A stretch of 61,990 nucleotides of DNA, counting the filler. It is 6 parts of 6 records of this genome, joined end to end, with 100 filler letters (N's around TTAATTAATTAA, not from the genome) between each part and the next. Parts side by side here need not be neighbours in the genome. Positions count along the whole stretch, not along the records: positions 39,644 to 48,800 come from DRR723986_2959; 5 more parts are not named here. One strand, 5' to 3'. A program made the position numbers and the translations under genes. Position 1 is the first letter of the stretch. Each line of letters begins with the position of its first letter. The notes below the pieces were generated by a model that saw only the letters and a list, made by a program, of their open reading frames with translations, was not told the DNA's origin and made no database searches. Of the stretch, positions 43,831 through 50,074 are shown one piece after another.

Positions 43831-44940
43831 ATGAGCGCGGCGGATGAGGAATTCGGACCTGTCAAGGGAACCCGCAGCCTGCCGCCGCTCCTGAGCCTTG
43901 CCCGGCGAACGCGCTATGCGCTTTACCAGGGCAGCCGGGTCGCGCTCTACACCCTTCATTCCGAAGCCATGCGGCAGATGAACCGGGATCTCCAGAAACA
44001 GCTTCCGGAAACGCCGAAGGTGGTGCCGACCGGCCCGGTGCCGAGCCAAAGGCGCATGCTGTCGGACATCGTCAAGCTTTTTGCGGATGATCTGAAGTCC
44101 GTCGAGGACGGGATTTATCCGCTGCCTTCCGATGGCACCATGACGCCGGGCGAGCTGATCGCGACCAGCCGTGCCTTCTTCAAGGACGTGCCGGAGGTGG
44201 CACGCCGTCGCGCAAGCGGTGCACATCAGGAGGTCAATTCCACCGAGGGGTTTGCCGCAGCACTGCCGCGCTATTACCGGCAGAACTTTCATTTTCAGAC
44301 CGATGGCTGGCTGTCGGAGGAAAGTGCCAGGCTCTATGACTTCCAGGTGGATGTGCTTTTTTCAGGTGCCACTGCCGCCATGCGTCGACGGGCCCTGGTA
44401 CCCTTCGCCAGGATCTTGCGCCGCAAGGACCAACGCCACGTTTCGTATCTGGATATCGCCTGCGGCACCGGCGGTCTCTTACGGCCCGCCCTGGCCGCAT
44501 TTCCGCGCCTCAAGGGCACGGGGCTCGATCTGTCGGAACCCTATCTGAACGTTGCCCGTGAGCGCCTGCCGTCGCGCCGTGCCGGCTATATCTGCGGCCT
44601 GGCCGAAACTCTGCCATTTGCGGACAATTCTCTCGACGTCGTTTCCTGCGTCTTCCTGTTCCATGAACTGCCGCCGAAAATCCGGCGTCAGGTCATCTCG
44701 GAGGTCGCACGCGTTCTGAAACCCGGCGGCTCCTTCCTTTTCGTCGACAGCCTGCAAACCGGAGACGTGCCGGAATATGACGGCCTTCTGTCGGTCTTTC
44801 CGCAGCTTTTCCACGAGCCCTATTTTACGTCTTATCTCAGCGAAGACCTGACAGGTATTGCCAAGGCGGCAGGGCTCGAAGAGAGCTGGATGGTGCCTGC
44901 CTTTGTCTCCCGCGTCGCGGAGTTTATCAAAAGCGACTGA
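43831..44940 (+). CDS. Class I SAM-dependent methyltransferase
   Basis: PRYYRQNFHFQTDGWLS, LDIACGTG, LDLS, FLFHELP, LKPGG, FHEPY. Confidence 0.88.
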   Translation: MSAADEEFGPVKGTRSLPPLLSLARRTRYALYQGSRVALYTLHSEAMRQMNRDLQKQLPETPKVVPTGPVPSQRRMLSDIVKLFADDLKSVEDGIYPLPSDGTMTPGELIATSRAFFKDVPEVARRRASGAHQEVNSTEGFAAALPRYYRQNFHFQTDGWLSEESARLYDFQVDVLFSGATAAMRRRALVPFARILRRKDQRHVSYLDIACGTGGLLRPALAAFPRLKGTGLDLSEPYLNVARERLPSRRAGYICGLAETLPFADNSLDVVSCVFLFHELPPKIRRQVISEVARVLKPGGSFLFVDSLQTGDVPEYDGLLSVFPQLFHEPYFTSYLSEDLTGIAKAAGLEESWMVPAFVSRVAEFIKSD

Positions 44941-44942
44941 TC

Positions 44943-45011
44943 TTTCAGTATTACTGAAAAATCTCATTCCTTCTCTTGAGACTGAAAACAATCAGGCGTA
45001 TATCGAACGCC
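44943..45011 (+). promoter_or_regulatory. Operator-like palindrome plus sigma70-type promoter implying a leaderless transcript
   Basis: TTTCAGTA-T-TACTGAAA (44943-59); TTGAGA(44976-81)-N17-TATATC(44999-45004); ATG at 45012 lies 7 nt past the -10 with no SD. Confidence 0.62.
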
Positions 45012-46331
45012 ATGAGATTGGATCTATGGCTCTTGCAGACAGGGGAAAGCCGCAGCGCCTTTGCGCGCCGCGCCAACCTGTCGCCTGCCTCCGTAACCGC
45101 CCTATGCAATGACCCCAATGTCTGGGTCTCGCGGGATATGGCCCGCAAGATCGCCATTGCCACCAATGGCGCCGTAACCCCCAACGACTTTCTCGGACTG
45201 TCTACAACCAAGGAGCATCCCGTGTCCCAGGCCCGTGTCGCAGAAGCAATCCGCGCATTCGAACGTGGTGAAATGGTGGTCGTGACTGACGATGACGACC
45301 GCGAGAACGAAGGCGATCTGATTGTTGCCGCCGCCAAGGTCACGCCGGAACAGATGGCCTTCATGGTGCGTCACACCTCAGGCATCATCTGTGCGCCGAT
45401 GACGGTTGCCCATGCACGGCGCCTGCGTCTTGACCCTATGGTTGCCGAAAATGATGCTCCGCTTGCGACCGCCTTCACCATTTCCGTGGACTACCGCCAG
45501 GGTCTGACCACCGGCATTTCGGCCGAAGAGCGCTGCTCTACCGTACGCGCACTTGCAAACCCCAATGTCGGCGCTGACGACTTCGTCCGCCCCGGGCACA
45601 TCTTCCCGCTGGTGGCCAAGGAAGGCGGTGTCATGATCCGCTCCGGCCACACGGAAGCTGCCGTCGACCTGTGCCGTCTCGCCGGCCTGGAGCAGGTTGG
45701 CGTCATCAGCGAGCTGGTGAACGACGATGGCACCGTGAAACGCGGCCAGCAGGTTGCCGAGTTTGCAGCCGAGCATGACCTGAAGATGGTTTCCGTTTCC
45801 GACCTGATCGCCTGGCGCCAGCGTACCGAGAAACTGGTGGAACGCGTCAACGAACAGCCCGTCGACACAGTTTTCGGCCCGGCCTATGCCACCACCTATT
45901 CCACCCCGTATGACCCGATGCACCATCTGGCCATCGTCTACGGCGACATTCTGGATGGCCGCAGCGTGCCGGTGCGCCTGCAACTGGAATCCGTGCTTGA
46001 TGATGTCTTCGGAGACGTCCAGCCACTCGACCAGATCATGAAACACTTTGCGGATCGCGGCCGGGGTGTCATCGTCTATCTCCGCGAAGGGTCGGTGGGC
46101 GTTGCCCGTCAGTCCAAGCGGCCGAGATCCGACTTCGAAGCCGCTGATTCCGAGGAACACAGCTCCGCACAAGCTAGACAGGAACAATGGCGTGAGGTCG
46201 GGCTTGGTGCACAGATCCTGAAGGACCTGGGCGTCAGTTCAATTCGCCTGCTGGCCTCCCGTGAGCGTCATTACGTTGGGCTGGAAGGCTTCGACATCAA
46301 GATTGACGAAACAGAGATCCTCGACACCTGA
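45012..46331 (+). CDS. ribB: Cro/XRE-like HTH fused to DHBP synthase with a degenerate GTP cyclohydrolase II domain (HTH-RibBX)
   Basis: RibB motifs DDDDRENEGD, GIICAP, AFTISVD, TTGISA, RPGHIFPL, RSGHTEA; about 70-aa N-terminal 'SRSAFARRANLSPASVTAL...IAIATNGAVTPNDFL'; C-domain lacks the Zn-binding cysteines. Confidence 0.9.
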   Translation: MRLDLWLLQTGESRSAFARRANLSPASVTALCNDPNVWVSRDMARKIAIATNGAVTPNDFLGLSTTKEHPVSQARVAEAIRAFERGEMVVVTDDDDRENEGDLIVAAAKVTPEQMAFMVRHTSGIICAPMTVAHARRLRLDPMVAENDAPLATAFTISVDYRQGLTTGISAEERCSTVRALANPNVGADDFVRPGHIFPLVAKEGGVMIRSGHTEAAVDLCRLAGLEQVGVISELVNDDGTVKRGQQVAEFAAEHDLKMVSVSDLIAWRQRTEKLVERVNEQPVDTVFGPAYATTYSTPYDPMHHLAIVYGDILDGRSVPVRLQLESVLDDVFGDVQPLDQIMKHFADRGRGVIVYLREGSVGVARQSKRPRSDFEAADSEEHSSAQARQEQWREVGLGAQILKDLGVSSIRLLASRERHYVGLEGFDIKIDETEILDT

Positions 46332-48070: not shown

Positions 48071-48800
48071 TCAGCCGATCTGGCCGCGATGACGCAGGAA
48101 ATGGTCCGCCAGAACGCAAGCCATCATCGCTTCGCCGACCGGCACCGCGCGAATGCCGACGCAAGGGTCATGCCGCCCCTTCGTCATGACGTTGACCTCC
48201 TCACCCTTGCTGGTGATCGACTTGCGCTCGGTGAGGATCGAAGACGTCGGCTTGACCGCGAACCGGACGACCAGGGGATCGCCGTTGGAGATCCCGCCCA
48301 GAATGCCGCCGGAATTGTTGCTCAGGAAGACGGGCCGGCCGACATCATCAAGACGGATCTCGTCTGCATTGTCTTCACCGGTCAGGCTTGCGGCATCGAA
48401 CCCGTTGCCGACCTCGACCCCCTTGACCGCATTTATCGACATCATCGCAGCAGCAAGATCCGTGTCCAGCTTGCCGTAGATCGGCGCGCCCCAACCGGCG
48501 GGAACACCTTCGGCAACGACTTCGATGACGGCACCGACGGAAGACCCGGCCTTGCGGATGCCGTCCAGATAGTCCGCCCAGAATGCGGCGGCCTTTGCGT
48601 CCGGAGAAAAGAAGGCGTTGTTATCGACTTCCGCCCAGTCCCAATTAGCCCGGTCGATCTTGTGCGGTCCAACCTGCACCAAAGCGCCGCGAACGGTTAC
48701 GCCCTGCAACACCTTGCGTGCGACGGCGCCGGCGGCAACGCGCATGGCGGTTTCGCGCGCCGAGGACCGTCCACCGCCGCGATAGTCGCGGATGCCGTAT
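48071..48800 (-). CDS. aroC: Chorismate synthase (5' partial)
   Basis: [50 protein letters not shown]. Confidence 0.97.
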
Positions 48801-48900
48801 NNNNNNNNNNNNNNNNNNNNNNNNNNNNNNNNNNNNNNNNNNNNTTAATTAATTAANNNNNNNNNNNNNNNNNNNNNNNNNNNNNNNNNNNNNNNNNNNN
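48801..48900. other. Artificial contig linker
   Basis: N44-TTAATTAATTAA-N44. Confidence 0.99.
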
Positions 48901-48995
48901 CCCGCGGGAACATCCAGCGACACATGGTCCACCGCCGCGTTGTTTCCAAAGCGGCGGACCAGTCCGCTGCAGGACAGGTCAGACTCTGTTGCCAT
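48901..48995 (-). CDS. ABC transporter ATPase, N-terminal fragment
   Basis: MATESDLSCSGLVRRFGNNAAVDHVSLDVPA, 5 nt after the SBP stop. Confidence 0.75.
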
Positions 48996-49000
48996 AAGGA

Positions 49001-50074
49001 TCAGTTCGCCGCCTGGACGCGATCCAGCACCTGCCCTTCCATGGCTTCCAGCCCCGGCGGTACCGGCGGATACCATTTGATGTTGTTAATAGCTTCTTCA
49101 TCGAAGCTCAGGCGATAGGCATCCCGCAGCTCGGCGTTCACAAACTCGTCGGCGCCTTTGGAGGCCGTGAAGTTACCGGAGGCATTGGTGATTTTGGCCG
49201 CAATTTCCGGCTGCATCACGAAGTTTATCCACTTGTAGGCGGCCTCTTCGTTCTCGCTGCGGCGTGGGATGGCAAAGGTATCAATCCAGCCCAGGGCTCC
49301 GGATTCCGGCGCCACAAAGCGGATGTCCGGGTTCTCCGCATTCAGCTTCCAGCCGCCGGCATCCCAGGCCATGGCAGCGGTCACTTCTCCGGTACGAAGC
49401 AGCGACAGCAGTTGGTCGCCACCGGTCCAGTAGGTTTTCACGTTGTCTTTGCAGTCGATCAGTTTGTCTTCCACTTTCGCCATGATGGACTGGTACTCGT
49501 CCCGGTCTTCATAGGCCGCAAACGGATCCATGCCCATGGCGAAGGCAAAGCCGATCAGCGTCGGCCGCTTCAGGCGGTAACTCACTTTGCCAGCCACTGC
49601 CGGGTCACACAGATCGGTGTAATCGGTAACGGTGTCCGCGACGGAACTGTGCACAATCAGGCCACTGGTGCCCCAGACCGAGGGCACACCGTAGGATTGA
49701 CCATCCAGAGCCGTCGACTCCTGAGTCGCCTTCACCATCGACGCCTGCAACTGGCCGGTATTGATGCGGCTGTAATCAATGGGCTTGTAGATGTTGAACT
49801 GGCGCTGTACACCCACGATACGATCCTGGCTCGGCTGGGCCAGATCAAAACCGGCGCCGCCGGTGGCCCGAAGCTTGGAGATCATGTCCTCGTTGTTGGA
49901 CAAGGTGATCTTTACATCAATCCCGGTTTCTTCCTCGAACTGGGCGACCACCTCATCCGGGGCGTAGCCACCCCAGGTAATCAGGCGAAGTTCTTCCGCC
50001 AGCAGGTTGCCGGAAGCTGTGGTTGCGGCCAGCAGGGTGGCCAGTGCTGATATCCGTGTCTTGCGCAGTGCCAT
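49001..50074 (-). CDS. PotD/PotF-like ABC substrate-binding protein
   Basis: Signal peptide; LITWGGY, FDLAQPS, WGTSGL, AWD, GWIDTFAIP, AYKWINF. Confidence 0.85.
   Translation of the reverse strand: MALRKTRISALATLLAATTASGNLLAEELRLITWGGYAPDEVVAQFEEETGIDVKITLSNNEDMISKLRATGGAGFDLAQPSQDRIVGVQRQFNIYKPIDYSRINTGQLQASMVKATQESTALDGQSYGVPSVWGTSGLIVHSSVADTVTDYTDLCDPAVAGKVSYRLKRPTLIGFAFAMGMDPFAAYEDRDEYQSIMAKVEDKLIDCKDNVKTYWTGGDQLLSLLRTGEVTAAMAWDAGGWKLNAENPDIRFVAPESGALGWIDTFAIPRRSENEEAAYKWINFVMQPEIAAKITNASGNFTASKGADEFVNAELRDAYRLSFDEEAINNIKWYPPVPPGLEAMEGQVLDRVQAAN

Follow-up and report, generated by a model that had tools for sequence, protein, structure and literature searches.

Bacterial riboflavin biosynthesis is taught as a pathway under riboswitch control. 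The only enzyme-fused riboflavin regulator that we found described is archaeal: RbkR combines a winged helix-turn-helix (HTH) domain with a CTP-dependent riboflavin kinase, its DNA binding and its effectors (CTP, flavin mononucleotide (FMN) and riboflavin) have been measured, and its regulon covers much of the pathway, as set out in the sections of the published account on which we draw (Rodionova et al. 2017, PMC5397151). This study concerns a bacterial gene, HTH-ribBX, found on the plus strand of a DNA stretch of 61,990 nucleotides (the window, by which we mean the whole stretch analysed). In its product, an HTH domain of the XRE/Cro type precedes a DHBP synthase, RibB (DHBP is 3,4-dihydroxy-2-butanone 4-phosphate), and a RibX domain, and a palindromic site lies upstream of its start codon. 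We consider it likely that the prophage-Cro-like HTH makes RibBX a protein-level feedback regulator of its own gene and of the gene for a putative riboflavin importer, acting most likely as a repressor.

Like HTH-RibBX, RbkR as presented in those sections is a riboflavin-pathway enzyme with an N-terminal DNA-binding domain, has palindromic sites, some of them predicted, before genes of riboflavin biosynthesis and transport (ribB included), and offers a protein-based alternative to the FMN riboswitch. It differs from HTH-RibBX, which is bacterial, joins an XRE/Cro-type HTH to a DHBP synthase-RibX enzyme, is known here from sequence alone, has a predicted regulon of ribBX and the importer only, and has an operator that coexists with an FMN riboswitch at the importer. 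BirA, NadR and PutA are listed in the same sections as bacterial analogues of RbkR (PMC5397151); these proteins likewise unite a DNA-binding domain with a metabolic enzyme, serve auto- or pathway regulation and dimerise through the enzyme part, which in their case senses the ligand as well, but their enzymes, domains and pathways are others, and the ligand or catalysis coupling demonstrated for them is conjecture for HTH-RibBX. The architecture of a trigger enzyme is present in the sequences compared, with one polypeptide and predicted operators at its own promoter (91/101 fused loci) and at the importer (7/7 fused genomes with a riboswitch-importer pair). In our literature search, which did not extend to the original RibBX and the Bradyrhizobium RibBX papers or to supplements, no description of HTH-RibB or HTH-RibBX was found, and the terms "helix-turn-helix" and "HTH" are absent from the recent reviews of riboflavin regulation consulted. 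Public records name the HTH-RibBX proteins only as DHBP synthase or RibBA.

The gene and the parts of its protein are laid out as follows.

45012-46331, plus strand: HTH-ribBX open reading frame (ORF), first ATG at 45012, 439 amino acids
45012-45200, plus strand: XRE/Cro-type HTH domain, residues 1-63, with helices at residues 3-10, 14-20, 25-33, 41-50 and 57-60
45192-45224, plus strand: variable flexible linker, residues 61-71, holding AAGGAG (45210-45215) and an in-frame GTG (45222-45224)
45243-45815, plus strand: DHBP synthase (RibB) domain, residues 78-268, PF00926 at 277 bits
45840-46310, plus strand: RibX domain, GTP-cyclohydrolase-II-like, residues 277-433, PF00925 at 111 bits
46329-46331, plus strand: stop codon

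The long frame as listed runs from a TTG at 44976 to 46331, and the ATG at 45012 is the first within it. Residues 1-70 are in frame with both PF00926 and PF00925 and no stop intervenes, which bears out an earlier reading of this DNA made from the letters alone (the sequence-only reading), where a Cro/XRE-like domain of about 70 residues had been seen in frame with DHBP synthase; the homologues, too, keep one open frame between HTH and RibB. The PF00926 match spans model positions 2-191 of 191, the ribB equivalog TIGR00506 is reached with 235.6 bits over its NCBIfam cut-off of 177.45, and the DDDDRENEGD and SGHTEAAVD blocks are invariant in a 19-sequence alignment of homologues; on these comparisons the RibB part is an intact, active-looking DHBP synthase. 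The ribA equivalog TIGR00505 scores 36.9 bits, far under its NCBIfam cut-off of 205.85, and alignment of the RibX domain to 4i14 (RibA2) and 2bz0 (RibA) shows that the HSEC cysteine is replaced and the C-x-C stretch deleted, leaving no zinc cysteines. Because the zinc cysteines are lost and the equivalog level is not reached, the enzyme part is RibBX and not RibA or RibBA. Such proteins have been described, in the parts of the sources available, as an active RibB followed by an X domain that resembles RibA but has neither the zinc nor the ring-opening residues (PMC10012899); this domain alters the activity of RibB through a mechanism not yet known, as reported in Shewanella (PMC10012899; bioRxiv 10.1101/2025.05.05.652280), and is the target of flavin-raising mutations in R. 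palustris (bioRxiv 10.1101/2025.05.05.652280; PMC10012899). The RibBX proteins of Shewanella oneidensis, Aeromonas salmonicida, Bradyrhizobium and Rhodopseudomonas palustris share with that of the window a RibB followed by a degenerate X domain; those parts of the sources mention no DNA-binding N-terminal domain for them, whereas the window protein adds an HTH and an operator.

With regard to the fold of the N-terminal domain, an AlphaFold2 model built from a 12-sequence alignment has five helices and a predicted local distance difference test (pLDDT) score of 85.7, and in a Foldseek comparison against the PDB the matches ranked 1-49 are all XRE-type HTH DNA binders, at template modelling (TM) scores of 0.63-0.74; HigA, SinR, SaPI Stl, C proteins, YdaS and CylR2 are among them. 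The HTH fold proposed by the sequence-only reading is thus recovered, as a five-helix XRE/Cro-type domain of residues 1-63. The domain also matches PHROG 2328, a family of transcriptional repressors (E 6e-4), and some homologues carry a precomputed PF13443 assignment. Judged by the modelled fold and these matches, it is an XRE/Cro-type HTH of phage ancestry. A two-copy complex prediction of the 66-residue HTH scored 0.26 against a mark of 0.32, which is evidence neither way. In the full-length AlphaFold2 model the linker residues 61-71 have pLDDT <50; this model is poor (mean pLDDT 64, predicted TM score 0.49) and was used only for showing the linker as low-confidence.

Phage Cro/YdaS repressors (8co2, 8c7k; PHROG 2328 and 35) resemble the N-terminal domain in structure (TM 0.68-0.72 to YdaS), are its best, though weak, sequence matches, and have short palindromic operators over their own promoter, as found at HTH-ribBX. 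They differ in being free-standing proteins of about 70-100 residues in the lysis-lysogeny switch; in HTH-RibBX the domain forms the N-terminal part of a housekeeping enzyme, and the setting is chromosomal and not that of a prophage. Standalone relatives of the HTH within the same order are genes of 68-100 amino acids with inverted repeats of their own. The closest of them, L120 (E 6.6e-16; G081:C21, minus strand), is a 90-residue gene in the cro position, with a cII-like gene (PHROG 101, E 2e-13) two genes downstream and several TTTCAG/CTGAA half-sites, of the TTTCAG-N5-CTGAAT type, over its promoter. From its sequence, the region resembles the immunity region of a prophage, one that shares its operator half-site with the fused loci.

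The elements upstream of the gene, of which the promoter hexamers are predictions, are given below.

43831-44940: upstream ORF, class I methyltransferase-like protein
44943-44959: predicted operator O1, TTTCAGT-ATT-ACTGAAA (TTTCAGTATTACTGAAA), with its centre 61 nt before the ATG
44976-44981, plus strand: -35-like hexamer TTGAGA
44981-44988: half-site of O2, ACTGAAAA, overlapping the -35 by one base
44999-45004, plus strand: -10-like hexamer TATATC, 7 nt before the ATG

The gap between the end of the methyltransferase-like ORF (44940) and the ATG at 45012 is 71 bp, as had been read from the letters, and across the whole window no match attains the gathering score of an Rfam family, so that the FMN riboswitch (RF00050) is absent before ribBX, again as proposed. 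The perfect inverted repeat that had been noticed there stands at 44943-44959, and its arms extend to 12 nt at 92% complementarity (44939-44950 and 44952-44963). Within the window alone O1 is weak, with one match at ≤1 mismatch against 0.12 expected and 11/100 shuffles giving at least one; its weight comes from conservation across loci and not from significance on its own.

This conservation was followed in the 250 nt before the start codon of 101 fused loci, namely the window, 80 further loci and 20 more distant ones. The best score against TTTCAG-N5-CTGAAA is 12/12 in 70 loci, 11/12 in 21, 10/12 in four and below 9 in six, and mononucleotide-shuffled upstream regions of 100 loci (L100, whose start is uncertain, was left out) reach 11/12 in 2/10,000 cases. 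The position is kept as well, the centre of the palindrome lying 61-62 nt before the ATG in most fused loci and at -72 in Phreatobacter-like ones. Over 78 sites that are <80% identical over 47 nt, the consensus TTTCAGT-N3-ACTGAAA carries 1.3-2.0 bits in its arms (values somewhat inflated because the best window per locus was selected), 0.2-0.8 at the three central positions and 0-0.4 at the 15 positions of the left flank. The gene upstream differs between loci: many Roseibium loci have the methyltransferase gene there, and Pannonibacter, Stappia and Phreatobacter loci have one that ends in ...HRGQ(V/N)G. Among unfused ribB(X) upstream regions of the same order, 0/20 reach 11/12, and neither do any of 18 FMN-riboswitch loci from 16 unfused genomes, with scores of 6-10 in both sets; the palindrome is therefore conserved and co-occurs with the fusion (91/101 against 0/20 unfused ribB), in keeping with what the sequence-only reading had proposed. 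We also considered O1 as an RNA hairpin or terminator, as which it had been listed (terminator-like, minus strand), and rejected this, since the arms are conserved in sequence and not by compensatory pairing, the stem is AT-rich with three GC pairs out of 11, and the site recurs in promoters of a different gene.

The operator also co-varies with the type of HTH. In a second clade of fusions (clade 2; L116-L119 and L208), which has a more typical Cro-like helix 3, the four loci compared carry a different helix 2-3 (…SQSELARRLGVTQGRVSQLVAG…), two of them being sourced from Aestuariivirga and Taklimakanibacter. In place of the clade-1 site, the clade-2 loci carry TATTAGC-N3-GCTAATA directly before the ATG, overlapping the -10, and the core TTAGC-N3-GCTAA occurs once per genome, at the own promoter, in 5/5 clade-2 genomes; no importer site was found in clade 2. 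In clade 1, helix 3 of L103 reads ITQFCND in place of VTALCND and its site has the form ATTTAG-N5-CTAAAT, with the same base pair changed in both arms, and L104 has a hybrid site.

These comparisons suggest that very probably this HTH, and not some other factor, binds the palindrome. It has to be weighed whether the palindrome is instead the site of another regulator, the HTH having some other role or being tolerated prophage baggage. This would fit with an HTH that matches known families below thresholds only and with an HTH-palindrome pairing that rests on comparison; it is set against the palindrome's presence in 91/101 fused loci and its absence from the 20 unfused ribB and the 18 unfused riboswitch loci, its change when the HTH type changes, purifying selection on the HTH across families, and a standalone HTH relative that adjoins the same half-sites. 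We regard this alternative as very unlikely. The claim of the sequence-only reading that an HTH-enzyme fusion binds its own promoter is accordingly well supported by the comparative evidence, within what sequences can tell, and each computational check that it had proposed turned out favourably.

The fusion is widespread. A search with residues 1-75 only, among proteins of RibBX length, gave 125 matches, and all 120 of the 120 listed also carry PF00926. Source names of the fused proteins include Roseibium, Pannonibacter, Polymorphum, Pseudovibrio, Stappia, Breoghania, Bosea, Xanthobacter, Prosthecomicrobium, Microvirga and Siculibacillus; the carriers are marine and soil Hyphomicrobiales, with Roseibium/Labrenzia, Labrys and Phreatobacter also represented, and the N-terminal domain of the window is identical to those of L001 and L002 (titled Roseibium sp. 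and Roseibium aggregatum). When species-representative genomes were scanned with a pattern, the fusion was confirmed in at least 560 stretches. Among 401 evenly sampled genomes of the order, 77 match and 62 carry the fusion: 55 matches are strong, with open frames of 428-644 amino acids, seven are weak, with frames of 426-506 amino acids (the second clade), and the remainder are small frames or unrelated proteins.

Selection has kept the domain. In the 19-sequence alignment it has 23 invariant columns, and the linker (about residues 61-75) differs between homologues in its residues as well as in its length without the frame ever being broken; differences within the N-terminal domain concentrate at third codon positions in 14 pairs, and the ratio of nonsynonymous to synonymous rates (dN/dS) is 0.06-0.62 in the 12 pairs with computable dS, mostly <0.3, with dS near saturation. 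The HTH codons are, on these sequence comparisons, under purifying selection. This bears on the view that the long frame is an annotation artefact and that only RibBX is made, from AAGGAG-N6-GTG at 45210-45224, the upstream 70 codons being an untranslated leader. Such a view could point to the good Shine-Dalgarno sequence and in-frame start within the linker and to the lack of a Shine-Dalgarno sequence before the first ATG, but the 63 N-terminal codons change mostly at third positions with the low dN/dS just given, the domain has its 23 invariant residues and a confident fold, linker indels are always in frame, and the ATG, which closes a conserved promoter-like register, is in keeping with leaderless translation. 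We give the artefact next to no credence.

A start within the linker might nevertheless be used in addition. AAGGAG stands six bases before the in-frame GTG at 45222, and an in-frame ATG or GTG lies 10-24 codons before the RibB GE motif in 90/91 distinct linkers (a count that left out five loci missed by the motif pattern and five duplicates), with a Shine-Dalgarno-like 4-mer before it in 88. This start is kept although the linker residues differ (KEHPV, RDEERAM, SRGLLM, GDQTM). When in-frame ATG and GTG codons were ranked by duplex energy, the linker Shine-Dalgarno came first in 6/24 representatives and among the top three in 14/24, one further representative having no such codon. An HTH-less RibBX from the internal GTG is possible on this showing, and it is suggestive only, because the strength of the linker Shine-Dalgarno is not exceptional.

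As to the origin of the fusion, a quick maximum-likelihood tree of the RibBX part (41 rows: 18 clade-1, four clade-2 and 19 unfused, with L102, L109 and L186 left out) has two deep lineages, and the fused proteins all belong to a single one. Seven unfused proteins are scattered among them, clade 2 has an unfused protein as its sister (SH-aLRT 96), and at least three changes between the fused and unfused states are needed, with the backbone unresolved. This tree fits a single origin with losses and several captures alike. The unfused RibBX proteins L195, L190, L184 and L189 are very close to fused ones, and two of them directly follow the same upstream gene end (...HRGQ..G*); in these sequences it is as if that short spacer had gained, or lost, a cassette of HTH and promoter.

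The regulon was scanned in the genomes of relatives. Counts of the 10-base core in five fused genomes, G001-G005, are 6, 6, 1, 1 and 11 (reversed control 5, 0, 0, 0 and 3), and those of the full 12-base palindrome are 2, 3, 0, 1 and 3; the ribBX site of G003 is an 11/12 match. The nine full palindromes comprise four at ribBX, three before a riboswitch-importer unit, one in a long ORF and one intergenic. Each of the three is 11-60 nt upstream of the sole FMN riboswitch of its genome, and the gene behind each of these riboswitches encodes an EamA-family transporter, for which NCBIfam returns a weak general transporter match only. An EamA family member behind an FMN riboswitch has the family and context of the RibN riboflavin importers, as far as the part of the source available describes them (PMC4418817), and the gene is, from its sequence and setting, a candidate RibN-like importer. 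A palindrome of at least 11/12 precedes the riboswitch and EamA gene in 7/7 fused genomes having the pair, the four genomes beyond the first five matching 12, 11, 12 and 11 of 12 bases, so that the motif does precede another riboflavin gene, as the sequence-only reading had anticipated. The distance from the single site to the 5' end of the riboswitch downstream of it is 63-76 nt in 5/7 importer promoters, and in Roseibium aggregatum and R. suaedae the site lies 6-18 nt before the riboswitch start, over the core promoter. At riboswitch/membrane-transporter-like loci of unfused genomes the palindrome is absent in 4/4, and before the ribH2-like lumazine synthase genes that an FMN riboswitch precedes in two fused genomes (L135 in G050 and L212 in G408) no operator was found (8/12 and 7/12). 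Among the loci compared, operator and riboswitch overlap only at the importer, and the predicted regulon consists of ribBX itself and the importer.

The FMN riboswitch (RF00050) on ribB or ribN likewise exerts feedback on the DHBP step and on riboflavin import; it differs in being RNA-based and in sensing FMN, is absent before the ribBX of the window, and joins the protein operator at the importer of relatives. It occurs in 40/151 sampled genomes of the order, 3/19 fused and 37/132 unfused, so that a complementary distribution of fusion and riboswitch, which we had considered, was not borne out. The replacement of the riboswitch by the protein, implied by the sequence-only reading, is thus half right: riboswitches are confined to 40/151 genomes, yet at the importer operator and riboswitch stand together.

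Further observations were made in these scans. The full palindrome of L156 lies inside a coding region, with no visible flavin link. L155 (G002:C18, 1501-1517) is the third perfect 12-base palindrome of the Pannonibacter genome, between genes of the MarR family and of a TPR protein; it may be chance or an extra target, and it too has no visible flavin link. The genomes G001, G002 and G005 (those of L002, L061 and L066), which have a riboswitch/EamA importer, have no canonical GTP cyclohydrolase II, the sole PF00925 match at E<=1e-10 being the RibX domain, and G003 and G004 (those of L067 and L065), which have neither riboswitch nor importer, each have a canonical GTP cyclohydrolase II (E ~1e-50); this contrast covers five genomes.

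Turning to the promoter, CTGAA starts at -33 to -26 in 67/96 clade-1 loci as compared with 35/4,800 shuffles, so the O2 half-site of the window has counterparts. In Stappia-, Breoghania- and Labrys-like loci O2 is a full near-palindrome (11/12) over the -35, with full second sites at -32/-34, and in Phreatobacter-like loci the site over the -35 is the perfect palindrome and contains TTGACT. The pair TTGAGA-17 nt-TATATC of the window scores 9.5 under relaxed promoter scoring, and a promoter-like pair of at least 8 with its -10 ending 4-10 nt before the ATG is present in 68/100 loci against 378/5,000 shuffles, the -10 ending 6-7 nt before the ATG in 60 of those 68. A Shine-Dalgarno-like 4-mer precedes the first ATG in 7/100 loci, mostly Pseudovibrio. 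Leaderless mRNA is common for cro/cI-type genes, and the spacing seen here suggests that the ribBX mRNA is probably leaderless or nearly so. The stretch was found as contigs in 14 RNA runs; in the four examined, contigs of 0.9-72 kb span or run through the region, and because they run through it they say nothing on start, strand or isoforms.

DHBP synthases are dimers, and the two HTH heads of a dimer would accordingly match the 17-bp palindrome with its two arms. In the mechanism that we propose, a RibB-mediated dimer would engage the palindrome with both heads, RNA polymerase would be blocked at sites that cover the -35 (O2) or the core promoter, and O1 would add affinity or interfere with upstream contacts. 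Transcription of ribBX and of the importer gene would then depend on how much of the DHBP branch's first enzyme is present, and possibly on its ligand state, with the RibX domain as the obvious candidate sensor. That a metabolite, perhaps through RibX, modulates DNA binding is conceivable and somewhat less than an even chance, and repression as the net effect is an assignment that we favour only slightly.

Several results weigh against this reading. Foldseek E-values for the N-terminal domain, which is very small, are 0.06-0.3; its scores stay under the thresholds of the curated families examined, with HTH_26 at 17.5 bits (cut-off 22), YdaS_toxin at 16 (30), HTH_3 at 14.7 (23) and TIGR04111 at 18.1 (34); and its best PDB profile matches, the prophage YdaS/Cro entries 8co2 and 8c7k, have E 0.18-0.26. 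The loci share descent, so that the counts given above cannot be taken as independent. The reversed control pattern turns up 1-3 times in each clade-2 genome too, so that it is the location of the site that matters there and not its uniqueness. In five genomes, no site of at least 11/12 was found within 2.6 kb upstream of ribE (a stretch with nrdR- and ribD-size ORFs), nor before the canonical GTP cyclohydrolase II genes (ribA) of G003 and G004; since the operator was not found before nrdR-ribD-ribE-ribH or ribA, this is not a regulon of the whole pathway. The half-site that the sequence-only reading had placed by a -35 is present, but its promoter assignment needs the looser scoring, as a strict sigma-70 scan of 44800-45300 calls no promoter.

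The sign of regulation belongs with these points. O2 is missing in 29/96 clade-1 loci, and where it is missing, as well as at most importer promoters, a lone site lies about 60 nt upstream of the start. The CRP class I activator position is -61.5, and -61.5 and -71.5 are the classical class I positions; the lone site at about -60 is thus in a place better known for activators than for repressors. The protein might be mainly an activator, or a dual regulator like lambda CI, with O1 recruiting RNA polymerase to the weak ribBX and importer promoters at low riboflavin, and with the weaker O2 over the -35, once occupied at high protein levels, shutting the promoter. Besides the missing O2 and the classical positions, this has on its side that O1 is nearly universal, is the site of highest information and is centred at a fixed -61/-62 (-72 in Phreatobacter-like loci), that the single importer site stands 63-76 nt before the riboswitch in 5/7, and that the -10 and -35 hexamers are poor. 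It is opposed by the habit of XRE/Cro-type proteins, which are mostly repressors, by the perfect Phreatobacter-like palindrome that contains the -35 TTGACT itself, by the Roseibium aggregatum and R. suaedae importer sites over the core promoter, and by the standalone prophage relative with sites over its own core promoter. We hold activation as the main or dual mode to be improbable, about one case in a handful. A ligand-free autorepressor sensing its own concentration, or an activator working from about -61, would fit the data as well as the metabolite-responsive regulator does.

A wider view of the feedback regulator, which we put forward as a tentative and rather unlikely extension, is that a prophage cro cassette (promoter, operators and leaderless cro) was captured and is read through into ribBX, giving two products and two layers of control. 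A low-yield long form from the 5'-terminal AUG would be the DNA-binding regulator-enzyme, and a high-yield short form from the retained ribBX Shine-Dalgarno and GTG in the linker would be the enzyme alone. Long-short heterodimers would carry one head and could not fill the palindrome, so operator occupancy would reflect in what ratio and state the two forms are present, with perhaps some tuning by a RibX ligand; together with the FMN riboswitch, this would amount to two-layer control of riboflavin import. Such a capture may have arisen more than once, in clades 1 and 2.

Some further features of the neighbourhood are recorded here. An inverted repeat, GGCGT-N7-ACGCC, at 44995-45011 flanks the -10-like hexamer just 5' of the ATG; it is listed as terminator-like on the minus strand, and its complementarity is not kept in the other upstream regions compared. 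A masked stretch at about 48800-48845 (X in the translations of ORFs 48089-48856 and 48849-49076) lies beside the ORF at 48071-48745 on the minus strand, which may encode a chorismate synthase. The C-terminus of that ORF resembles the gene directly upstream of HTH-ribBX in the Pannonibacter, Stappia and Phreatobacter loci.

If the proposed feedback regulation is true, HTH-RibBX would be a new trigger enzyme, it would explain the control of ribBX where no riboswitch exists, and a transcription factor and a riboswitch would be stacked on one importer gene. A phage switch module would then have been domesticated for vitamin homeostasis. The pair of operator and repressor would be compact and portable, and the finding would give access to RibBX's regulatory X domain, so far unexplained. 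Should the view of a captured cassette also be true, bacterial riboflavin biosynthesis would have in HTH-RibBX its first dedicated protein transcription factor.

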